This document shows positions 2,684 to 34,379 of a stretch of 64,000 nucleotides of DNA, one piece after another (the stretch's first letter is position 1; every line of letters starts with the position of its first letter). The translations under genes and the position numbers were made by a program. The DNA is taken from NCBI RefSeq assembly GCF_963853765.1, contig NC_088853.1:39308001-39372000 (forward strand), written 5' to 3'. The notes under the pieces are model-generated. The model saw nothing but the letters and a program-made list of their open reading frames with translations. It was not told the origin of the DNA and searched no databases. The stretch comes from Magallana gigas (Eukaryota).

Positions 2684-5600
2684 AGTTTTAATAATTCTCA
2701 GGAAAAGTAAGTGATTTGGACAAGCGATTTGTTTTCTGGAGAGAGAGAAAAAAACAAATAGTATACATTGTCGTTTTAAAGCAAAAATATGTATACTTAA
2801 ATAGAAACCAGCAGAAATATACATTTTTTTTATTAGCGTGTGATTCTTGTCGAAAAATAAACATGGACTACTAAATTAGGATAAATGTTATATAATGGAT
2901 TTATAATTATTGCTACTGGCAATCTTTTAATGTATTTTAATTGAAATATACTTTCAATCTGTCACATTTTATAGTTGACCTTAGGAAATATCTTTTCTAT
3001 ATTTCCCCCACGACTAATGACTTGTTAAACGCGTGCTGTATATCAATTAAAATTGATTACATCCATGTATTTAATGTCTACATTGACCAGCTGTTACATT
3101 ACCAATACAAAATAAAAATTGACATGAGTAGTATAGTAAGATAAATGTACAGATTCAATCAATAATTCTTGAGCGCCTTTATTAGTATATTCCTCTGTCG
3201 GCAGGTATGAGGTTCTAAAGTCAATTTAGCAACCACTAATACAAATTACCGTGTTTGCAGAAAAGAAGCACACATTGCAGGAATGTAAACTAGATATAAA
3301 TTTAATGTACATAAATACCTCATAAAATTATCCCAACTCTGTGCAAGTGCATGTATTTATACAGGTATGGAGGACACTTTCATGTATGCGGGATATTTCA
3401 ACAAGTGAGGCTGTAAGCAGCTTTCTCACTTTCAAGAAATACATTTAATATCAGTTACCAAATTTTTAAAATAATTTTTATTCCATTATTTTAGATTCAA
3501 TGCACTAAAAGGCGTTTTCCTTGGGAGTTGATATTTTTTTTATTCTGAATTGTTGAAAGAGAACTTTCGATTGCTTTCAAGACAGCTCAAAATATGCTAT
3601 TGTAACTAAAGAGCATATTTACCGCTGTTGTTTTTGTTAACGATTTGATGGAAAAAATATTTACTTATGGAAGTATTCGTTCGTTATCATACGGTAATAC
3701 CCATCATCTAAAATGTTCTATACATAACTGTGCGATGAGCCGTTTAACTGCACTATGAATTTCTCGGAAATAGGATTTTTATTTTTATTTTATATCAGTT
3801 ATATGTTTTGATATTATATGTCAAATCAAAGAAGAGATATAATAAAGTATCAATATATAATGTTTAACTTATAACGTTCTTTCCCCCTACTGCTGAAAAT
3901 GCAAAGATGTAAATCAGCTGTAAAAAGATTATCGTTTAAGCCCCTGTTTAAAACATACTCAAGAAAATTTTTAAGCAAACTTACTATTCTTTATTCGAAA
4001 CAGACCACTGGGTTAATAAAACCCCTCAGAAGGTCGTGTGCTCTGATCCAAATCTATTAACTGATAGTCGGGCTTAGCCAGTAACTGGTACAGAACCAGT
4101 AAATTGCTTAAATATTGATAAATTTGTTTTTAAAAATAGCATTTACCTGTGTGGGAATGTAAAAATTTGTTATATGTTTACGGTAATGTCAAGACTTTTA
4201 TTTTGGTACTTGATCAAGGACATTGCAAAAATTTTACTCTAAAGGGTAAAAAACTATTGTACAGAATTTAATCTTGCCGTTCACTTTGACAACACTAAAA
4301 TGTTTTAATGTAAAAATCCATCATTTCTGCCCATTGGTACATGTGTAGATAAAGAGGATTAAACATTGTGAATGTTTAATATCGTGCATAACATTGTCCG
4401 TTATTATATGCGTAGTACTAAAACTTCTTCAAAGATGTCTTGTTGCGTAAAATACAGAAAACATGTATGAAACACATAGTGTTTTTTTTTCATTTGTAAC
4501 TTACATTACATCACCTTAGTTGAATGCAGTGAATATTGTATTTTAAGAAGCGACTGCATTTTGAAGATCCGTGCGAGTATAACAGAAACAAAAATTGAAG
4601 AAAACATACATAACTTCTCCTTAACCTGTTAGTCAATATACTGTCGTAGATTTCCAATTATTCTAGATCTCCTAAACCTAATTGATTTTGATTATAATCG
4701 GTGTATTTTGTTAACCTAAGTAAACAATATCGTTCTCGAACAAAAATGAAACAGCTTAATTATCAGTAAGTGTGTGTGTTTGGAACCACAATAATGCTCA
4801 TATTATATAACCAGCTGTCTAAAAAATACATATATAATAGGGACTTCTTTATCACCGCTGTTTAAAACGTAATGATTTAGACATTATTATTGACCAAAAA
4901 AAATATGGGAACATAATTTGATTTTGCCTAATTTACTAACAAATAAAAGCTAAACAACAACTGGGGTTTTTGATATAAATTATATAAATGCCATTCTAAT
5001 TATGAATAGATACAAATGATCGGTTTATCACAAAACAGGGAATTAGAAAAAAAAATGCTTGATGTAACTTTGGTTTGGTAAACATTTGCTTTAGCATAAT
5101 ATTTTGGATGTCAATATACAGGATGTCAATATACAAACAAAACTTCTCAATAACACAAAGTTAATGATCGTCTAAGTTGTTTCAATGTTTAGGTATGCAC
5201 AAGCGCCACTTCAGTGTATGTTTACGATATATCTGGAAACGAGCTCATACCTAGGTCTTCTTACTTAATATTCTGCAAGAAAATAAAAAAAACAAAGGAA
5301 AAGCCAGGAGCAACAAATAAAGCATACATGTATTAAAACATTTCCACGTAAAATAGTTATTGATTTTAAATTTGCATTCATTAGATTACGTTTTTTCCAA
5401 TACTTACTTTTTTGGCGCCAGTTTAATCCGACCGAATAACAAAATGATTGCTTACGCTCCTTTACATACATACCAAAAGTAGATTTACATTCCTCCCAAG
5501 CAATTGCATACGCATCAAGACGAACAAGACCAGAAGTAAACTCCAATAGGGTATACACAGTATACTTTAAACTAAAATGAATGCTGATAAAGTATTTATA

Positions 5601-22095: not shown

Positions 22096-22146
<51 letters not shown>

Positions 22147-24182
22147 CATGTACCACTATTAATAACTTATTCGTCCGAACAAATCCTAATTCGTCCGAAC
22201 AAATCCTAATTCGTCCGAACAAATCCTAATTCGTCCGAACAAATAAGTTATTTGTCCGAACAAATAGCTAATTCGTCCGAACAAATCCTAATTCGTCCGA
22301 ACAAATAACTTATTTGTCCGAACAAATCATAATTTGTCCGAACAAATAACTTATTTGTCCGAACAAATCCTAATTCGTCCGAACAAATCCTAGTTCGTCC
22401 GAACAAATCCTAGTACGTCCGAACAAATAACTTATTTGTCCGAACAAATAACTTATTTGGCCGAACAAATAGCTAATTCGTCCGAACAAATCGTAATTCG
22501 TCCGAACAAATAATTTATTTGTCCGAACGAATCCTAATTCGTCCGAACAAATCCTAATTCGTCCGAACAAATAACTTATTCGTCCGAACAAATAGCTAAT
22601 TCGTCCGAACGAATAAGATTATTATTTTTTCTCATCTGGCCCTTCCACGCCGCCGTACAAATATAAAAAATAAATCAACAAAAAAAAAATGCGGGTAAAG
22701 TTATGATCAATAATTTTAAAAGTATCTGTAATAAAAATCTGTAGAGGTATGTTGTAGGCTGTCCTTTACAAATAACGCATTGCGATGTCTTGGACAAAGT
22801 TGATTGTGTCTGTTTGGCCTGTAAACTTGGTTACCATGGTGATCAGTGTGAACGAGGTATATTCTTATATGCATTCATATTTTCTTAATGCCATTCATAT
22901 TTAAATACATGCATGTTGTATTACTACAAACTATCATTCCAAGACAACTTAAGCAGTTTAACAGATCTATTTACTAGTTATAAATTCAGGTATTCTTGCT
23001 CAACGCATGCGATACACTACTTAAAAAAACGACATTAGCTATCGCATATTTCAAAATACATGATTTATCTGTACATGAAAGGTAATTTGTCGTCTGGCTC
23101 ATATAGCTAGTTCGATTGATCTAGAAATATAAACCATTTTTAAAAAGTTACGTTGCTTACAGAATGGGTTTGATGATAAGTAAAAATAAGCAATGTTCGA
23201 TCTTTATGCTATAAAATTGTATATTAAGTATTGATTATTATTATCCAAAATGAATGATGCACTTTAGATGATCAAAATGTTGAATGGTTAGTTAAATATG
23301 TTATACATTAATGTTTATGCTATTGCATTGCTATCTTAAATAATCTCAATACTCACCCAAATTGATCCTAATACATTGCATACATTTATATATTTTTTTT
23401 CTTCATGAAGTTAAAATATCACAGGATAAACCTTTGCCATTTAGTGAACTGAATGTTAACTGATTGGTCTGGAAAGGTGACTGAATGGCATAGCTATGGC
23501 ATTCAATTACCTTGCAGTTACCGATCACTCACATTTCAGTTCACTGAATGGCAGAGATTCATCATGTGTATATCTTCTCAAATAAGTTTGATTTTGTATA
23601 TATTTGTCTACATTCATGCAACCTAACTTTGATTTAAAAGAAACAAAACAAATGAATGCAAATTGAAAAAAAAATCAAACCAGCTTTACTTTTTAAGTTT
23701 GTGAGATTTTGGTATAATTGTAGGGTATTTAATTGATGTAAGATTTAACATTTTATTTTAAATTGACATTTTATTCAAAATTTGTTATATCATCCTCAAC
23801 TGATGTCGAAGTTAAAAGCCAGACTCCTGTACTGCAAGGTCTGATCGGTGGCCTCAGTGTCTCGATTTTAATCATCGTTGTACTTATTCTCTATACTGTA
23901 CAAACAAGGTGAAATATGATATCAATAACTGCGAATTTTTTTTCATTTGAATATTTACAATTTGTCAATTTGACATCAATTATAAACGAAATATATTTTT
24001 TACAAACGTTTAGAATTTCAATGAGAAGGAACCCTCCATTATTGAATGCAATAGAATTAAGGAATGACGCCAACTCATGTGTTACTGGAAGCAATTATAC
24101 TGTGAATAGTTACACTGAGTTCGGATGGTCCAGTAACACTGACCCATATTATACGATCCAGGAGATGACAGGTGTAGTTTAG
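16334..24182 (+). CDS. Receptor copy A: signal peptide / F-type-lectin-like domain / EGF / TM / cytoplasmic tail
   Basis: Exons 16334-16418 (MFIPYGQSIWHINVFILWFCLLGASQSY), 17726-17959 (ENVALHKRAFQ...NAVDG...WWVNLG), 18434-18688 (...LGFSLYVSN...CEVEVY), 22758-22856 (EGF-like), 23791-23908 (TM; its acceptor is TAT instead of TAG) and 24014-24182. All frames are compatible. Confidence 0.8.
19403..20222 (+). repeat. 20/21-bp satellite array in the left arm of the foldback element
   Basis: Interspersed variants TTTGTTCGGACGAATTAGGA, TTTGTTCGGACGAATAAGTTA, TTTGTTCGGACGAATTACGA and ...TTACATA. Confidence 0.95.
20237..20278. repeat. (GA)n microsatellite, mirrored as (TC)n at about 22098-22143
   Basis: Direct inspection; lies within both foldback arms. 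Confidence 0.95.
20331..20452. mobile_element. Small MITE-like insert within the foldback arm, mirrored at about 21922-22046
   Basis: Short inverted ends CATGCGC(A/G)GATCCAG ... CTAGATCCGCGTAT around a G-run-rich core. Confidence 0.55.
22162..22618 (-). repeat. 20/21-bp satellite array in the right arm (inverted, shorter)
   Basis: Units TTCGTCCGAACAAATCCTAA and TTTGTCCGAACAAATAACTTA are reverse complements of the left-arm units. Confidence 0.95.
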
Positions 24183-26374
24183 AACTTATTCTTTAACACA
24201 ATCGAAAGTTTTTCAAGTCATTTGCCCTAAGAAAAATTAAAAATGGAAGGAAACTGAAGAATTATGATAATTTCAGCAAATATACCAAAAAAAATCATGT
24301 ATTTTTTAAATTGATTTGGAGGTTTTTGATTAATCAATCAAATATAAATGATATTTTTAGATTATATTTTACACAACTTTCTTGCAACGGATATTAACTG
24401 ATATTTGTGATTTAGTTAAAAAAAAAATACTGATCAATTAGAATTATAATTGATGATTTGTTCATGTTAATAATGTATATAACTGTTTTGTATCTTGAAA
24501 ATAACGAATAATATCATAGTACTAAAACTGTACTATTTTTTTATTACAGTAATCAATTATTAATGTATGTCAAAAAAAAGTGTTTGAATATTTGCTTTCA
24601 TAAAAAAGGATAATAACGATAGATGTGTATGAGTTCTGAAATATAATAAAGTCGTTTTTTTTTTCTTATGCTGCATTGTTATTTACTATTCATTGAGATT
24701 ATTATATATCAACTGAATATAATGATGTGTGCGTTCCATATCTAAATTGTTAGTTTAATTCCATATTTTAGCCAACTTTTTTAACAATTTGTTAAATAAA
24801 TGAAAATCAAAAAAAATAAAAATGGAACCATATCTGACAAAATATTGAATATTTAAGACATTCTGCTCTATTCTCTACTTATCAGACGAAAAACAAACTA
24901 TTCTCAATATCTTTACTTTGAACTTGGGTGTTGATTTTACGTCCTTCTTTCTTTGTTCTGTTTTTATTTTATCTTATTTCTTTTTTTTTAATTTTCTTTT
25001 TTTGTTGCTATTCAGAAATATTACATTTTTTATAGGTTTATATGACTAGGTACATGCACATGCGCCTGAAAAGGATAATGTTCACTAAGCCCAAAAGTCG
25101 AACAAATATTGTACTTCGAGGGTAGCTACATTAATGCATCGTACCGATCGATGAAAATTGCAAAAAATGATTTCATTTTTGATTCAATGAGAAACTGTTA
25201 TTATCATTTACAACTGAATGTTATCTTGCGAGGAAAATTTTAAGGTGTCAATACATGACCAAGGTGAATTAAAATCCCAAATTCTCCTTTGATTTTTTTC
25301 CGCCTTGGACGGAGACTGATTTTTGACGAATAAAACTGGTAAGATATCTGCTGTTCTGCTATTGTAATAAATTGGTGTGTTTTGAAATATCGATGCGTTT
25401 TGTTGCCAGAGTAGCGTGAAAACACATGAGCTTGTTTTCAATCACATGTGTAACTTCGACATAAACATACACTTTTGCCCTTTTTTGTGGGGGGAGGGGG
25501 GGTTAAAGTGCATACTAAGTGTTGTTCTAAGAAATGCTCACGGGAAGTTTTACAAAAGCTCGTTTATTACCTGTATCTAAGGTTGCATTTCTATTTTTGT
25601 TAGATATATTTAGAGAAACTCAATGATGTTAGTAGTGAAACCTGTATTAAATATAGGGTTGAAGTCAAAATCAAACACACAGACAAAACGCATAATTTCT
25701 TTAGATAATAGAAATGAAAATAACCTTTTGTTTTGGAAAATCTATGTTGGTCAACTTTAGAGAAAATCTAATGGTATATTTACCTCGTAAGTCAAGTGGA
25801 GGCGGATATAAGTTTTTTATCGTTTCAATTAATTTTATCATCATAATATCAGCCAATTAGAGGACTAGGAATTAATCAATCATTATAAGACGTGTGCTGA
25901 TAATGAACAGTGTTCCAAATCGAAAGGACAAATACAAAACACAAACAGAGCAAGCACGGACACCTAAAATAACTATAGGTAGGGTCAGTTGCCATGGAGG
26001 AGTTAGAATCCTCTGCTTACTGGCCATACCTGCAATGATTATTAGCAAATATTAAAAAAATGTCTAAAGACACAGATTGATATTAGATACAACTTTTACC
26101 TTATTAATTACTTACATCATATAATTAATGTGTTATCTGCTGCTAATGTCGTTACATACCATAGCACACAAAATAATAAAAGTGATGTTATATATATACA
26201 TATAACATGCCTGTATAGTACGATTTTATCAAAATGCGTGTGCATCCAATTGATCAGGATCGAAATTGAATGACTATGAAAGTTTAAAGAACAAATGGAG
26301 GTCGGTTTGTGACCAATGATTCTTTGAATATATCACCTTATTATAAATATTATTCTCCATTCATTTACAGGTAT

Positions 26375-26777
26375 TGTAGCGTTTCTATTTTCTCAACGTT
26401 TCTCCTTTTTAAAGAATAAGTCTGCGTGGTTCTCACAATTTTAATAAAAGGTAATAATCCAAGAAACATATGTATAAATTCATTCAAAACTTGTGCAATT
26501 CTAACCTACTACTCTGCTAGATAAAACCACCCGCACTGAACTTAAGCCAATCTCCCTTTATATATAACGTCTCTAGAATAACTCCTCAATCACGTGCATA
26601 ATTCACTCCTAATAATAAAATCAACTCCTCTCTTTAAAATAACTCCTCACTATGTTTCATAACAAATACAATTTAGGTCAGAGATGAGGAGTTAATATCA
26701 ATTAGTAAACAAAGTTCATACGTTAAAGAAAGAAATAAACTAGATAAAATTAAAATGAATAATATAACTTTGCTTCA
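26375..26777 (-). repeat. 3' LTR
   Basis: Matches 33437-33839; I found one substitution (26703 T vs 33765 C). Adjacent PPT GGGGGGAG on the minus strand at about 26778-26785. Confidence 0.95.
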
Positions 26778-26896
26778 CTCCCCCCTGCACAAGTTTTGAC
26801 TCCGACAAAACAATAATAAACATTGATAAACAAAACAAAACAAAATATTATACAATTACTAAAAATAGTCTGATATATATACATATATACAAAATG

Positions 26897-27288
26897 TCAC
26901 TCGGGATTTGAACTCTGTCTCTTTAGTTCCGCTAGGAAAATTGATATTTCCTCCAAAGTTCTTTGCGCAAAAATGTTCGCACTTTGTCTATCCATGTTTT
27001 CGCAAACATTAATTTCCATCGTTCTCTGTTCATTGATCACCTCACCATCTTTTATAACCGAAACACTGGTCATATTTAGTCCGATTGATCGTGTCACGAC
27101 AACTTCACGAGTATCTTCGTACACTTCCTGTTGATCGTCTTCTTCTTCATCTGATATCATGATGAAATCCATAGATATTTCATCGTTAGAATGAGCAATA
27201 GTGTCACTGTCTTGAAGTCATCTTCATTCTCATCTGACGAAATGTCACTGTAATCCGGGTTTTTAATAATTCTGTCGTTAAAATCCAT
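26897..27288 (-). CDS. Gypsy accessory acidic ORF (one apparent 1-nt frameshift near 27220)
   Basis: ATG at 27288 gives MDFNDRIIKNPDYSDISSDENEDD; a shifted frame gives QDSDTIAHSNDEISMDFIMISDEEEDDQQEV...LAELKRQSSNPE*. The two starts are 116 nt apart, one short of in-frame. Confidence 0.6.
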
Positions 27289-27307
27289 GATTTTTGGAAT
27301 AAACAGT

Positions 27308-27526
27308 TTAAAAACACAAATCAAAATCATTTATCAGCTGTTCATCGTAATCATAATGTCTATTGTGAAAATGTCTGCGCAGATTTTCTCTTCGCTTAAA
27401 AACTCTATCACAAAACATGCACTGAAATAAGTTTACATTTTCTTTGTGTTGATGGTTGAAACGTCTTTTAAAATTATCCAATCTGGTAAAAACAATTCCA
27501 CATTTATCACATAATACAGTCTTCAT
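27308..27526 (-). CDS. Gypsy accessory ORF with two C2H2 zinc fingers
   Basis: MKTVLCDKCGIVFTRLDNFKRRFNHQH ... FQCMFCDRVFKRRENLRRHFHNRH. The ATG overlaps the last pol codons. Finger 1 appears to have H>R. Confidence 0.75.
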   Translation of the reverse strand: MKTVLCDKCGIVFTRLDNFKRRFNHQHKENVNLFQCMFCDRVFKRRENLRRHFHNRHYDYDEQLINDFDLCF

Positions 27527-30500
27527 AATATCTTTGTGGCTTGCGAATGACTCTTCCCCGCATAGTTTTCTTAGGCATACCCACGGTCTGTTGATCACGT
27601 GGTTGGTCAGTTCGAGGAGGATCTTGAATTGGAATACACAACTTCGGGTTTGTCTTTGGCGCGTTAGCTTTTCCCACGCGCGGTGTTTTGGCGGCATCTT
27701 TTGAATTTGAGGAGGGATCCAGCTCAGGCGTGTTGACAGTTTTGCTCGGCATCTCTTTGAATTTGAGGAGGTGTTTCAGTTTTAACTCTGCTGTTTTTCG
27801 TATCTGGAATGATTTTATGTTGTCAGCATGGACAATGACGGGATTAAATTTTCTCGAATGTTTAATTTCAAACAACACATCACTTAATTTTTTCGTAATA
27901 ATCCATGGTCCAGTCCAGTTTCGAGCTAATTTAAGTTTTGTGCCAACAATTTGTTTGGGCTGAAATCTCCGTACAATATCACCTCCGTTATAAGTTTTCC
28001 GCACAGCTGTTTTATCATAATGTCTGTTTTGTCTGCACACTGCTCCCGAAGTTCTCTCTCTAGCGAATTTATGTACAAGCTCCAAATTTTTGCACAAATT
28101 TTTCACATATTTTGTTTCCGATATTTTCTCTCCTTTTCCGATTTCCAGAGATTCCGTTTGTAAATCTACGGGTATAGTCATCTCCGAACCAAACATCATG
28201 CGAAAAGGCGTAATTACAGTCGTTTCGTGAACTGATGAGTTTTATGCCATCACAACACAATCAATATAATCGTCCCAGTCAGTTTGTTTCACATTTATAT
28301 ACTTAGACAACATATCTTAAATTGTTCGATTGAGTCGTTCTACCATTCCGTCAGATCTTGGACGGAATGCAGTTGTTCTTGTTTTCGCTCTGTCAAACAT
28401 AGAGCACAGATGTTTAAACACTAAACTTTCAAACTGTACACCTTTATCACTGTGAAATTCGTATGGGCACCCGTATCTTTTTATCCAGCCCCGGAAAAAT
28501 ACATTAGCTATCGTTTTTGCTTCCATATTTGGTATCGGAAATATTTCCGCAAATTTACTGAAATAATCCGATATAACTAAAATGTACACATTATCAATTG
28601 CGGTATTAGGAAATGGTCCTGCTATATCTGCTGCAACTCTTTCAAATCTTCCACCAACGGTATAGGTTTCCATATAATGTCGTCTTTTTCTTCCAGGATT
28701 TTTCCGTTCTTCACATACTTCACAGGACTTCACATAATCACGAACATTTTGTCTCATCCCCGGCCAATAATATGATGAAAAGGAAGCTCTTTGCTGCGTT
28801 CTGTAAATTCCCATATGTCCTGAGGTAGGCGCATCGTGTAAATACCACATTACATCCTCGCGAAGTCTATTCGGAGTACAAATACGTAGTCTATTTTCAT
28901 CTTTTTCTGTCCAAAGAATACACAAAACATCATTATGAATTCGTAACAATTCCCAACGTGCATGCCAAAATGTACACTCTGGGTGTAAATGTGAAATGTC
29001 CTGGTACGAGGGTTTGTCTTTTCCCATTTTAAGCAACTTTAAAATAGGAAATATTCCGTCATCATTCTCTTGTGCCTTACGTATGTTCTCGTACGATAAC
29101 TCGTTTACTGGCATCTCAACACTTATGGCTCGCTTTGGTCTATTTTCCGTGCGTCCTTTCTTCTTGCTTTTTACTTCAGAACAATGGTCCTCACTAAATA
29201 AATTCACAATATTACAAATTATATTTTCTTGGTCACATATTCCACTTTCACTGATATCGTTCCTTAGTTCGTGTACATGCGATTGCTGCTTTCCATCATA
29301 AATGTCACTTAATTTTCGATTGCACTGTCTACAAACTTCTTCACTGTCGTTTGCATAATTTGACGGTAAACGCGATAAAGCGTCTGCATTACTGTGACGT
29401 TTTCCCGGTCGGTGAATAATTTTGAAATCAAACGCCGATAACTGCTGTAACCACCGACAGACTTGGCCATCTGGATCTCTAAACCTATGTAACCAGGTTA
29501 AGGAACCGTGATCAGTACGTAAAATAAATTCCCGTCCAAGAAGATAATGTTTAAAATGTTTTATAAAAAAAACAACAGCCAACATTTCCTTTCTCGTTAC
29601 ACAGTAGTTTTTCTCATGGGAATTTAAAGTTCGGCTGGCATACTGCATCACTTTTTCTTCACCATTTTGAATTTGTGACAAAACACAACCAATCGCATCA
29701 TTACTAGCATCTGTATCTAGCACAAATGGTCCACCATCTACATCTGGATATCCAAGTATAGGAGAATGTATAAGCTTATCTCGAAGTTCGTGAAAAGCAT
29801 GATCACATTCCGGCGTCCAGTTCCATACTCCATTTTTCTTAGTTAAAGCATGAAGGCACTTGGCTGTTTCTGCAAATCCTTTGACAAACTTCCGGTAATA
29901 TGACATAATTCCCAAAAATCTTCGTAAATCTGATACGTTTTAAGGAAGTCGTATGTTCCTAATTGCTTCTATTTTCTTCGGGTCTGTGTGCACACCATAT
30001 CTTGAAACTACATGTCCCAGAAATTCTACTTCCTGTCTGAAGAAAAAGCATTTCGATGGCTTTAATTTTAGGTTTGCTGAGTCCAGTCTGTCACAAACTT
30101 GATTAAGATTTTCTAAATGTTCTTGAAAACTTTTTCCAAACACAATAATGTCATCAAGATATAAAACAGCAATGTTCCACTGTAATCCACAAAGAGCTTT
30201 TTCTATTATCCTTTGGAATGTCGCCGGGGCGTTGCACAACCCAAACGGCATGACGCTATATTGATATAGTCCTCCTCTGGGAGTCGCAAATGCTGTTTTC
30301 TCCTTATCTCTCTCCGACATCTGTACTTGATGATACGCCATGTTTAAGTCTAGGGAGGTAAACCACATCGATCCAACTAAAGCGTCCAAGTTGTCATCTA
30401 TTCTTGGTATTGGATATGCGTCCTTTATCGTTCTCGAATTGAGTCTTCGATAATCCACACATACGCGCCATGTTTTGTCTTTCTTTTGCACCAAAACAAG

Positions 30501-31697
30501 CTGAGATGACCACGGACTATGGGATTTTTCTATTATTCCCAAGTCCTCCAATTTCTGAATCTCATTATCCAGAATATCACGCTTGAATAAAGGCATGTTC
30601 CGCGATGCCTCCTTGAAAGGTAGTTCGTCATTCAGAACAATATGATGTTCTCCTAAAGTTGTCTGTTCTAAGCGTCTATTAGGATCAGCAAATGTAGCAA
30701 CGCGTTTCTGCAGAAACTTCTTAAATAAACTTGCCTCTTGATCAGAGAGGTAAATCCGACCTTTTTCATACACAGGAATTAAATGAGCAGGTAATTCCTT
30801 TGGATTCTTTTCCTCCACTAAATAAACTTCCTCTGAATTCAGGCGTTCACTATTAGAAACTTTAATAACAGGAGAAAATATTGCTATTCTAGCATTTTGT
30901 TTTACTGTCACTTCTGCTCTTCCCAGATTAAACAATCTTAAATATCCGTTAAATGTTCTTGTGTTTAACAGAGTTCTTGCAACCAGCAACTTATGTTTAT
31001 GCAGAAAATCTGATAACACAACTGGTATTCCTTCACTGTTCTCCGGGTAAGTGAATTCCGTTTGGATAACAACTTCGTGTCCTGGTGGCGCAGAAATGTC
31101 CTGACTTGCTATTATCCAGTTGGTACGTCTAAGACAAGCATTATTACCAAGAACTTTAACAAACAATCCCCCATTCTCATGATCCCAATTACATCTAAAA
31201 TATGAATAAAAATCTGCTCCTAATAAATTCTGAGAAACTCTACCAACGAATACCCTTAAATCCGTTTCAAAATCATCAAAGTTTAACGGCATATGCGCTG
31301 TTCCTAGTACATATAAATCTTGGCCACTTGCAGTCACAAACTTCTTTCTTGCTGGCTCCAGCACTGGTCGATTTTCTGGAGGAATTTTATTAAATATATC
31401 TTCTGCTATGAAGGTATTTTTCGCTCCAGTGTCTACCTTCCACGTAACAAATGTACCTTGTATCAGTCCATCAACGTAGAATCCTATCTTGTTTTTACTT
31501 GCATTTATTTTATAACAAGATGGGAAATCTTCAGATTCTTCTGTCACATCTCTTCCATTTTCATCATCAACGAGTTTGTCATTAGTTGTGGTTCTTTGAT
31601 AATTAGAAGATGAAGAATCGTTATCAGAATTAGCACCAGGCCAGTCTATGTAGCCGTCCGACGCATGGCCTACTGCCTCGGCGGCGCGTCTTTTCCC
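27507..31697 (-). pseudogene. pol: Gypsy pol (protease, RT, RNase H, integrase) with three in-frame TAA stops
   Basis: Motifs KVDTGA, YLDDII, LDTDAS, HDAPTSGH...CEVC and DIAGP...HSDKG...VERLN. One reading frame, interrupted at 29940-29942, 28317-28319 and 28242-28244. Confidence 0.93.
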
Positions 31698-32932
31698 TGA
31701 GGAACTGCTCCGCCATTCTCCCTCCTTGCAACTGAATTTGTACTAGGACATTGATTTCTCAAATGACTTAATGATCCACAGGTATAACATCTCTTTCTGG
31801 TGTTATAATTCTTTCCATTTTGATAACTTTTATCAATTCCACGGGATAGTTGTTTTGGGTTGACTGTGTAGATATCCCTTCTAACTGTCTTAGAATTTTT
31901 CAATGACGGTTCCTCGCCTACCCGAATACACTCTTCTTGCATGGCTGATGTAACTGCCTCCTGAATTGTTTTCGGCCTCGTCCTCTTAACTGACATTCGG
32001 AACTCCTCATTTTCAGATCAGTTATCCAGAAACGTTTTTAAACTGTTTTCATCGACGCATGCTCTGTTTCCAGGATAAGCTCTTCTGAATAAATCTTCAA
32101 TCACTTGTCCATAATCTCTAAATGTCTCATTAACGTGTTTTCGGCGTAATTTTGCTTCTGCAATGTAACTATCCTTCAGAGCTGTATATCAAAATCTCTG
32201 ATTTAAAGCTTCTGTCAAATGCTGATAATTGCCCATGGTGTTGTCTGGAAGTCCATAAGCATATGTCTCTGCTTGGCCACGTAAAGTAGTTAACAGCACA
32301 CCCCTCTTTCTTTGTACAGTCCACTGATTTAAATTAGCAACGTTCTCAAAATATCTGAAGAATTCAGTCCAGGTAGTCGATCCATCTCCGGAAAATGTCC
32401 TTTTGACTGGAATGTTGACACTACTTTCAGTCTGATTAGTAACTTCTGGAGTTGCCAGAAAATCACTTCTACCTCTTGGAGTCGCACCCCGCACGGAACG
32501 TTGTCGATATCTTCCAGCTGTTCTTCCAGTTGATATCCAGCATTTATACAATACACTAATTAATATCACAAAAATAATCAAAAATATTAACACAATGATC
32601 AGTTCTCGTGTAGCCCACATTACTATTCCTCCAGGAAAGAACTGATAGGCGACATACAACAGAGTTGTAAAAATAGGAATCACTCCGAACCAAAATCCTA
32701 TTAATTGTCCCCATCCTGTTGAATTGCTCACATATGCGGTGCCCTCGGTTGTTGCTAGTTCTGTTTCTACAGCAGGGGTATTCAAATCTTCTCTGTACAT
32801 CGGACACACAGGAGAATCAGCTTCATTGAATTCCTTTAACAAGTTCCGACGCACGGCAGTACGCGGTGAAGATTCCGGTATATTTGTAGTTCCTCGAGGC
32901 GTAGTCATCATGTCACTATTTTCTGGTTGCAT
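31670..32932 (-). pseudogene. gag: Gypsy gag with N-terminal hydrophobic segments, CCHC knuckle and two in-frame TGA stops
   Basis: FSGDGSTTWTEFFRYFENVANLNQW capsid-like motif and CYTCGSLSHLRNQC. Stops at 32189-32191 and about 32018-32020 with frame preserved. Confidence 0.85.
31691..31697 (-). promoter_or_regulatory. Putative -1 ribosomal frameshift slippery site G GGA AAA
   Basis: X XXY YYZ heptamer in gag frame (CAG GGA AAA). The -1 frame is open and continuous with pol. A downstream GC-rich segment has GACGC...GCGTC pairing potential. Confidence 0.6.
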
Positions 32933-33048
32933 ATGCAACAAACAAAGTAAAACAACATGAGTCACTAAAACAGCACTTACAAAAATATCCAGCTTGCTAA
33001 GTTCTACTACTATTCAAACAACTAAATCTAGAAGAATTCACAGAAAGT

Positions 33049-33300
33049 TTATCGGTACGCCACACGTGTTTCTGTAAATGCTTTAATTCTGCAGCCACAG
33101 AACGGACATTTGTAAAATTCACTTTTCTTTCCGATTGCTGTAATAATGTAGTGACGATTCTCGTTGTTCTTGAACATAACAAAACAATTGGGACACTCTC
33201 TTCGGTCACTTACGTTAATTTGTCCAAGGAGAATAAGATTTCCATTTTCTACAATGTCATAATAGTTCACAAATCTTTGTCGTCCTTGATAATCCATCAC
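33049..33300 (-). CDS. Gypsy 5' accessory ORF, putative zinc ribbon (two CxxC)
   Basis: 83-aa intact ORF between PBS and gag, containing ECPNCF...x24...KCPFCGC. Confidence 0.6.
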   Translation of the reverse strand: MMDYQGRQRFVNYYDIVENGNLILLGQINVSDRRECPNCFVMFKNNENRHYIITAIGKKSEFYKCPFCGCRIKAFTETRVAYR

Positions 33301-33414
33301 TATGCACTATGCATTAATAAATCCCTCCAAAAGTAATAATAATTCCACACGTCAAAAGTTAATCAAATAATTTAAAGATTTTCACTTTAATCCATAATTA
33401 CTAATATTAAAATT

Positions 33415-33434
33415 GAATCCCACCGCTGCCACCA
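33415..33434 (-). promoter_or_regulatory. Primer-binding site complementary to tRNA-Leu
   Basis: The plus strand GAATCCCACCGCTGCCACCA equals the 3' end (with CCA) of eukaryotic tRNA-Leu of the AAG/TAG type; it lies 2 nt from the 5' LTR. Confidence 0.85.
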
Positions 33435-33436
33435 CT

Positions 33437-33839
33437 TGTAGCGTTTCTATTTTCTCAACGTTTCTCCTTTTTAAAGAATAAGTCTGCGTGGTTCTCACAA
33501 TTTTAATAAAAGGTAATAATCCAAGAAACATATGTATAAATTCATTCAAAACTTGTGCAATTCTAACCTACTACTCTGCTAGATAAAACCACCCGCACTG
33601 AACTTAAGCCAATCTCCCTTTATATATAACGTCTCTAGAATAACTCCTCAATCACGTGCATAATTCACTCCTAATAATAAAATCAACTCCTCTCTTTAAA
33701 ATAACTCCTCACTATGTTTCATAACAAATACAATTTAGGTCAGAGATGAGGAGTTAATATCAATCAGTAAACAAAGTTCATACGTTAAAGAAAGAAATAA
33801 ACTAGATAAAATTAAAATGAATAATATAACTTTGCTTCA
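33437..33839 (-). repeat. 5' LTR
   Basis: 403-bp match to 26375-26777; adjacent to the PBS. Confidence 0.95.
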
Positions 33840-34379
33840 GTATATTTAATTTATCCGATTATCAATCCAACAAATCTACGGATATATTTTTATCTCCTTT
33901 TAGAAGAGTTCATGATTCTTACCTCTACGTTTTGCGCGATAAATAGCATCCTTTTATTCTGTCGAATCAATGAAGAAAGATAGAGAATATGGTAACGTCT
34001 TTTCAATAAGCTGTGAAGTTGTTAGTGCCTAATTTTGAAACTCTTAAACTAATGACAGAACTGAGGTATGGTTACATCAATCTATAACTGTGTGCTTCAT
34101 GGACAGTTCAAGGTTTAGTAAGTTGACCCGAAAATTATTAAAAAGAGCAAATGACACTCATGGATTTTAAAATGTTCGGGTTAATATTTCATTGTATGAA
34201 ACAAAACGACAACATCGCGCGATTAGGAGCTCATATAATGTAAGGAGTATACCGTCACAACAGCCGTCGTGTGCCCAGTCATCAAGCAATAAAGAACATC
34301 AATAAGTATTTACAATCATTATAAATGGTTTACTCATATCGGGTAATTTTATCATAGGTGTTACTATTAGTGCGTACTT

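Follow-up and report, generated by a model that had tools for sequence, protein, structure and literature searches.

A Ty3/gypsy lineage of bivalves that may carry its own C2H2 transcription factor and the matching promoter words

The 64,000-nucleotide stretch analysed here, hereafter the window (Magallana gigas, NCBI RefSeq assembly GCF_963853765.1, contig NC_088853.1, positions 39,308,001 to 39,372,000 of the forward strand), carries on its minus strand a retrotransposon with long terminal repeats (LTRs) and additional open reading frames (ORFs) on either side of gag-pol (Table 1). It is a Ty3/gypsy element (Metaviridae), as shown by its LTRs, primer binding site (PBS) and polypurine tract (PPT), by the order of gag followed by protease, reverse transcriptase (RT), RNase H and integrase, and by an RT that among solved structures is closest to that of Ty3 (E 1.7e-62, against 4e-22 or weaker for retroviral RTs). 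The pol frame lies at –1 relative to gag. A pattern containing the PBS complement occurs at 11 places in the genome, and both of the two inspected are tRNA-Leu(aag) genes. Seven full-length copies of this element were found (the W family), the six other than the window copy, here called sisters, being about 98% identical. Those protein relatives that have names come from oysters, and the RNA runs containing the element likewise carry an oyster label. Upstream of gag lies a small ORF, ORF0, and between pol and the PPT there are only a C2H2 zinc-finger ORF and an acidic ORF, without any match to an env family, so that an env-bearing Gypsy element (errantivirus-like) or a retrovirus was rejected. 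We argue below that the two downstream ORFs probably encode a regulator of the element's own LTR.

A sequence-only reading of this DNA had proposed a gypsy element with accessory ORFs on both sides of gag-pol, all in sense orientation and none resembling env, and this was borne out when the LTRs, PBS, PPT and gag-pol order were located, with every accessory ORF on the same strand as gag-pol. ORF0 was correctly placed between PBS and gag and does contain two CxxC motifs (CPNC and CPFC), at a length of 82 rather than 83 amino acids (aa). The C2H2 ATG overlaps the pol end as described, by 20 nucleotides (nt). The acidic ORF, given as about 130 aa, has 131 aa in six of six sisters; it starts 19 nt past the C2H2 stop instead of 20, and is frameshifted in the window copy. 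Two hydrophobic helices at the Gag N-terminus, and premature stops in gag (two) and pol (three), had escaped that reading.

Table 1. Features of the W-family element in the window (positions counted from the first nucleotide of the window)
Feature	Position	Strand	Remarks
5' LTR, TG...CA	33437–33839	–	403 bp; 1 mismatch to the 3' LTR
3' LTR	26375–26777	–	holds an identical set of four GAGGAG words, 26582–26691
Target site duplication GTAT, 4 bp	26371–26374 and 33840–33843
PBS, tRNA-Leu(AAG)	33416–33434	–	complement pattern matches tRNA-Leu(aag) genes
PPT	26778–26786	–
TATA-like box (TATATAAA)	33619–33626	–	pattern match; 17 nt downstream of the nearest GAGGAG
Four GAGGAG(TT) words in U3	33644–33753	– (33644–33649, 33687–33692, 33705–33710) and + (33748–33753)	predicted C2H2 sites
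ORF0	33049–33297	–	82 aa; predicted beta-hairpin and CxxC...CxxC zinc ribbon; no named family
gag	31670–32932	–	420 codons, 2 premature stops in this copy; capsid region, CCHC knuckle
pol	27507–31742	–	protease, degenerate dUTPase-like stretch, RT, RNase H, integrase; 3 premature stops in this copy
Three GAGGAG words in the pol tail	27614–27770	+	88–239 nt upstream of the C2H2 ATG
C2H2 ORF (N-half of ORF3)	27308–27526	–	72 aa; helices RLDNFKR and RRENLRR; short acidic-aromatic tail
Acidic ORF (probable C-half of ORF3)	26897–27288	–	131 aa in sisters; YxDISSDE motif; C-terminal hairpin-helix domain

The accessory ORFs are not peculiar to the W family. A genome search with ORF0 gave 29 matches, 22 of them outside the W family, and gag directly follows in 20 of these 22. 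Six further families carry the cassette, namely F10 (locus L010), F11 (L011, L014), F16 (L016, L042), F19 (L019, L020, L022, L043), F27 (L027, L041) and F34 (L034), with pol about 50% identical and RT-RNase H 67–77% identical. In five of them the region past pol holds a single ORF of about 190–260 aa, ORF3, which starts 5–30 nt beyond pol; its two C2H2 fingers are followed by an acidic middle, marked by the motif YxxISSDE, and then by a conserved domain at the C-terminus. In F34 this ORF is decayed. A related element with the same PBS and a membrane-helix Gag, L033, has neither ORF0 nor ORF3.

The ratio of nonsynonymous to synonymous divergence (dN/dS) of ORF0 is 0.06 between L016 and L019 (p 4e-15), 0.08–0.30 in most other pairs and 0.48 between W and L016, the saturated between-family values, from protein-guided alignments, leaning low; against the decayed relative L008 it is 1.4. 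The close pairs, which are the reliable ones, give 0.11–0.28 for ORF3 within F19 and 0.32 within F11. Among W copies the corresponding polymorphism ratio (pN/pS) is 0.38 for ORF0 (p 0.19), 0.45 for the fingers (p 0.30) and 0.32 for the acidic ORF (p 0.007), similar to gag (0.47) and pol (0.38). Because ORF0 relatives precede gag in 20 of 22 cases and between-family dN/dS is well under 1, the accessory ORFs are not chance frames. Conservation and dN/dS across copies, which the sequence-only reading had offered as its check, thus point to purifying selection, with frames kept both in sisters and in related families.

Outside its own family, the W-family C2H2 ORF finds its best genome matches in the ORF3s of other elements (40–48%), ahead of other zinc-finger frames. 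The acidic ORF shares motif, order and position with ORF3; the similarity itself is weak (pairwise E 0.0085; blastp to F11 E 0.008; profile E 0.13 over 1416 frames, with the sister's frame unreported at E<1). We judge it probable that the two W-family ORFs correspond to the two parts of a single gene, which the related families have in fused form. In F11 (L011:7221–7868) a Met stands just before the YEDISSDEE motif, where the W-family acidic ORF starts, and an internal start may have preceded the split of ORF3. We also considered a programmed +1 frameshift or readthrough joining the two ORFs, which would suit a C2H2 stop that follows a T run and varies between TAA and TGA; the spacer length differs in one sister, so the frame relation is not fixed. 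A deleted form, L016, has lost the acidic middle and keeps the fingers and the C-terminal domain in frame.

The evidence that ORF3 may act on the LTR of its own element begins with the finger helices. The C2H2 ORF passes the Pfam zf-C2H2 cut-off (E 1e-5), fits C-x2-C-x12-H-x3-5-H with contact residues at –1, 3 and 6, and its model aligns to CTCF and Tramtrack fingers (Z 4.4 and 3.9; root-mean-square deviation about 5 over 55 residues). Both W-family helices carry Arg –1, Asn 3 and Arg 6. Helices of this type read GAG, RSDNLVR being one example (PMC5260015), and the variant with Glu 6 reads CAG, as in RADNLTE (PMC3237566). The W-family fingers thus predict a GAG-GAG target. The word GAGGAG occurs four times within the 213 bp upstream of the TATA-like box of the W LTR, each time followed by TT; the expectation for this U3 is 0.15 (2000 dinucleotide shuffles, p≤5e-4), and flanking DNA has 0.04 per 403 bp. 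Five more occurrences lie inside the element, three of them in the pol tail where 0.38 are expected. Cognate words before ORF3 are also found in F11 (two) and are absent from the other five families.

Across families, as read from protein and LTR sequences side by side, the fingers co-vary with the words of their own U3. Upstream of the TATA box we find GAGGAG (four) in W, GAGGAG/GGGGAG in F10, GAGGAG (three) and GGGGAG (four) in F11, GAGCA(A/G) (four) in F16 and in F19, G(A/G)GTGA in F27 and CAGGA(G/T) in F34. Finger 1 has its Arg 6 in F10 and F11 and lacks it in F16 and F19. F34 is the sole family with Glu 6 in finger 2 and the sole family with CAG-led words, these being in the LTR of the same copy. 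Altogether, fingers with Arg 6 face a G-led triplet in 10 of 10 cases and fingers without it face C or T in 4 of 4 (nominal p 0.001). No such words stand upstream of TATA in L033, the related element without ORF3. Measured in six families, the gap between the TATA box and the end of the closest site is about 9–17 bp. GAGnAG words also occur downstream of TATA in L010 and L011.

The arrangement of the words differs between families. F10, F16, F19 and F27 each have exactly two inverted word pairs with a 5-bp spacer upstream of TATA (p 0.001–0.005 against shuffles in each family; F10 scores at other spacers too), and F34 has two CAG-type inverted pairs with the same spacer. The 5-bp spacing is kept in these five families, here called dyad families, although their LTRs are otherwise very different. 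Inverted pairs are absent from W, from F11 and from both of two control LTRs. A helix-strand-helix extension after finger 2 (model residues 58–81) is present in the five dyad families and missing from W and F11. In an inverted pair the finger-2 triplets face the centre and the part after finger 2 lies over the spacer, as in zinc-finger nucleases. Since inverted pairs and extension occur in the same five families, these models and sequences suggest a dimer there and a monomer in W and F11. W and F11 are also the closest pair by RT identity (83%, against 71–76%, in a set that leaves out rows under 110 aa, L008 and L034, and in which L024 gave no match), and their unpaired sites may go back to one event.

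The predicted structure of ORF3 offers a route from binding to activation. Its model consists of two canonical fingers, the helical extension, a disordered acidic middle (pLDDT under 50 at residues 90–183) and a hairpin-helix end. The W-family acidic ORF has 35 Asp or Glu among 131 residues, and the tail of the C2H2 ORF (27308–27340, minus strand) is acidic with spaced Phe and Leu, which we take to resemble short acidic activation motifs. The C-terminal domain has no counterpart in the ESM Atlas, and none in the fold search, in which the fingers filled the result and the domain was barely probed.

From these data we propose, with a probability of about 0.6, that in this env-less Ty3/gypsy lineage of bivalves ORF3 binds words near the TATA box of its own LTR and likely activates transcription. 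Finger 2 would read the 5' triplet of the U3 word and finger 1 the 3' triplet. In five families ORF3 would sit as a dimer, held by the helical extension after finger 2, on inverted words 5 bp apart, and in W and F11, which lack the extension, it would use unpaired sites. The acidic, disordered half would recruit the transcription machinery. In the W family a split of the gene would have left two proteins, one of 72 aa that has the fingers and an acidic tail of its own, the other of 131 aa. Each family would in this way gain a private positive-feedback loop. ORF0, which travels with ORF3, would most likely be a zinc-ribbon cofactor, the least-supported step. More broadly, we lean towards seeing here a 'complex' retrotransposon that has a regulator, a cofactor of the zinc-ribbon type and a Gag anchored in membranes, and in which a self-made C2H2 factor and the matching LTR operator change together into insulated private circuits, mostly dimeric, with the W version monomeric and split.

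Several observations weigh against this proposal. The fingers in the 14 finger–triplet pairs share ancestry, so that the independent changes behind them number about two to four. Both the dyad pattern and the words assigned to the families were picked after the LTRs had been viewed, and only the GAG core came from the protein first; the F34 LTR was known before its finger was read, though a GAG-based scan had missed the F34 pairs. Finger 1 of F16, F19 and F27 misfits the standard code base by base, and in F16 it has Arg –1, yet three of the four words end in A. In diverged relics of the W LTR the GAGGAG columns are not over-conserved (82/102 against 684/800, p 0.19, in a count where overlapping loci enter twice), and the word is perfect only in L070 and L075. 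Internal cognate words precede ORF3 in only two of seven families, and the distance of the sites from TATA would suit a repressor as well. The trees give no firm order of the families, and W and F11 as a single clade are neither shown nor rejected (p-AU 0.52). RNA is scarce: four raw runs gave 14, 11, 0 and 13 element reads among about 11 million each (about 18–19% of each run), with no splice joints among them; in four families a polypyrimidine-AG stretch resembling a splice acceptor lies ahead of the ORF3 ATG. Finally, ORF3 is missing from a young F10 copy (L009) and is cut at a shared point after finger 1 in two F34 copies (L036 and L039), so that copies can move without an intact ORF3 of their own.

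The alternative that survives best, though we consider it unlikely, is that ORF3 represses its own LTR as a form of copy-number control, either by blocking TATA or through a co-repressor bound by the YxDISSDE motif or the C-terminal domain. Repression draws on the same sites and fingers as activation and would agree with the 9–17 bp between nearest site and TATA, with the scarcity of transcripts in adult-type RNA runs and with a copy number as low as seven full-length W elements. What favours activation instead is the acidic, aromatic-studded disordered region, the usual make-up of an activation domain, and the several upstream sites, which resemble an enhancer array.

Sequence-specific recognition of the LTR would also serve a purpose other than transcription, either as a shield from host silencing or as a tether for the LTR cDNA while it enters the nucleus or integrates. 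Some transposons encode anti-silencing proteins, VANC among them, which remove silencing marks from cognate copies in a sequence-specific manner, and the hairpin-helix domain and ORF0, being without a known fold match, could recruit chromatin factors. We rate this reading as rather improbable: the words cluster upstream of TATA and not at the LTR tips or throughout the element, and the Pfam and fold searches returned no enzyme, chromatin-reader or known suppressor domain, an absence of matches that does not exclude one. The earlier suggestion of a 'regulatory or anti-silencing module' is accordingly upheld in its regulatory half, given finger helices that match and co-vary with the words of their own U3; its anti-silencing half has no direct support, with neither a chromatin enzyme nor a known suppressor domain among the domain and fold results.

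It is more doubtful still that the U3 words are sites for host factors, with a coincidental finger match and an ORF3 target elsewhere. Purine-rich boxes are common in promoters, and RxxNLxR helices, like GAG-rich words, are frequent; part of the pattern choice came afterwards, the relic columns show no excess conservation, and L010 and L011 have their GAGnAG words downstream of TATA as well. Yet the changes from GAG to CAG (F34) and from GAG to CAA or TGA (F16, F19, F27) coincide with loss of Arg 6 in the matching finger, the 5-bp spacing is retained across five families with very different LTRs, and words of this kind are missing upstream of TATA in the outgroup, which has no ORF3. A neutral role of the accessory ORFs, as fragments captured from the host or as chance frames carried along, has next to no probability left: the damage to both 3' ORFs in the window copy, the ORF0 ratio of 1.4 against L008 and the small within-family counts for ORF0 and C2H2 would allow it, but the cassette keeps the same position in seven families with only about 50% pol identity, the best outside matches of the C2H2 ORF are other ORF3s, and dN/dS of 0.06–0.3 in most informative pairs largely refutes it.

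ORF0 is predicted to be an all-beta protein composed of a beta-hairpin and a zinc ribbon (pLDDT 80), and its four cysteines are invariant. The fold searches that had been suggested for each ORF had a divided outcome, the fingers aligning to known C2H2 structures and ORF0 having no Foldseek match at E≤0.001 and no significant match in Pfam, sequence or fold searches; its best alignments to zinc ribbons of the TFIIS/RPB9/NrdR type are weak (Z 3.0–3.2 over about 40 residues). Searches for remote relatives gave 43 matches among 870 candidates and 42 among 1.84 billion representatives; all strong matches are unnamed family members, and ten distant ones are without names. Multi-finger C2H2 proteins were rejected as relatives, since they were the weakest matches and aligned through chance cysteines. 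In the ESM Atlas only small bacterial or viral zinc-ribbon-like clusters were returned, with at most 141 shared features for the first match. Metagenome, viral and GTDB contigs, when scanned, held nothing beyond short CxxC matches at 5 loci and so supplied no DNA context from outside this genome. Because ORF0 appears together with ORF3, we suggest, with low confidence, that it serves the ORF3 circuit as a zinc-ribbon cofactor. In F10 ORF0 is doubled, with a diverged paralogue (L010:1277–1498) immediately preceding the first in tandem.

The Gag N-terminus consists of about 75 polar residues followed, before the capsid region, by two predicted membrane helices (about 32648–32704 and 32546–32602, minus strand). 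Two in-frame Gag helices are present in all six families scanned. Among the 120 Gag relatives listed of 171 matches, 85 have two helices, 10 have one and 25 none (many of them cut short), and those with two include proteins named from Mytilus (mussel). Two relatives, P0239 and P0240, are labelled as belonging to a bacterial symbiont genome bin, which probably contains host DNA. Since L033 has the helices without the cassette, the two-helix Gag is older than ORF0/ORF3. The predicted helices may serve to hold particles at membranes. Another hydrophobic stretch, in frame ahead of the gag ATG, was discounted; it is present in only three of seven loci compared and is probably a T-rich leader.

The window copy itself (26375–33839) is damaged. 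It has five premature stops and one frameshift and differs from its sisters by about 2%, yet its LTRs are one mismatch apart, and it was probably copied from an already-defective template with help in trans. Its acidic ORF is frameshifted near 27215, after about 25 codons, and finger 1 has lost its first histidine, which is present in all six sisters; one sister lacks a finger 1 cysteine and has the histidine intact. ORF0 is open in all seven family copies, and in the six sisters all three accessory frames are kept. Sister L006 carries a duplication of about 450 nt spanning the gag-pol junction (about 2800–3280). A weak dUTPase-like stretch lies between protease and RT (about 30860–31110, minus strand; Pfam E 0.18). 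Elsewhere in the window, positions 22141–22634 hold a tandem array of units of about 20 nt in both orientations.

The closest functional parallel is Tas (Bel1) of foamy viruses, the product of a 3' accessory gene, which binds its own LTR and an internal promoter and thereby sets up positive feedback (PMC9143442). The likeness lies in the 3' accessory gene of an LTR retroelement whose product is here predicted to bind its own LTR, and it may extend to an internal promoter, the W family having three cognate words just upstream of the finger ORF. Tas comes from an env-bearing retrovirus and is not described as a C2H2 protein in that account, whereas the present elements are env-less Ty3/gypsy with a two-finger C2H2 protein; the helices here change with the LTR word; and activation is shown for Tas and presumed here. 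By analogy, ORF3 likely works like Tas without being a member of the Tas family.

Other known layouts differ in more respects. In MDG1 elements, as far as that preprint describes them, sORF1 is a predicted helix-turn-helix protein, in contrast to the all-beta zinc ribbon of ORF0, sORF2 is a separate single-pass protein, in contrast to two helices within Gag, and there is no room for an ORF after pol, where the present elements have one (bioRxiv 10.1101/2025.03.14.642691). The tandem ORF0 paralogues of F10 are a point of likeness to MDG1. We rejected an MDG1-type sORF element here, ORF0 being a soluble beta protein and the hydrophobic helices lying in frame with Gag in six of six families. The aORF-3S frames are likewise conserved sense ORFs at the env position of LTR retrotransposons; they are described as plant or insect env-like proteins, often with membrane helices, and that account, in the parts available, has no C2H2 protein with candidate LTR sites (PMC7264820). 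The MolGy1-16, Mag, CsRN1 and Cigr-1 clades share both hosts and superfamily with our elements, and the present lineage probably falls in one of these RT-defined mollusc Gypsy clades (PMC6238403). The main text of that study contains none of the words 'ORF', 'zinc', 'PBS' and 'transmembrane', and hence no such layout, and a word search of a mollusc transposon survey returned no zinc fingers in the text searched (PMC10294476). No description of the layout turned up in the literature searched, a scope that leaves Repbase, GyDB and most subscription journals outside. Extra sense ORFs after pol were already known; new here are helices that, from their residues, predict GAG-GAG and the repetition of this word before the element's own TATA box.

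LTR retrotransposons are commonly taken to rely on transcription factors of the host. DNA-binding transactivators encoded by the element itself are known from complex retroviruses such as foamy viruses, and C2H2 proteins usually figure as a host defence against transposons. The seven families amount to a natural matrix of proteins by sites, testable with short oligonucleotides and reporters. How elements without env interact with membranes is a separate question, to which the two-helix Gag, common to mussel relatives, offers a lead. If our proposal is true, the lineage would show a regulator and its operator evolving together, the change from paired to unpaired sites, and the survival of a gene through its split. 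The usual roles of C2H2 proteins would then be reversed, with the transposon carrying the C2H2 protein and reading its own promoter.

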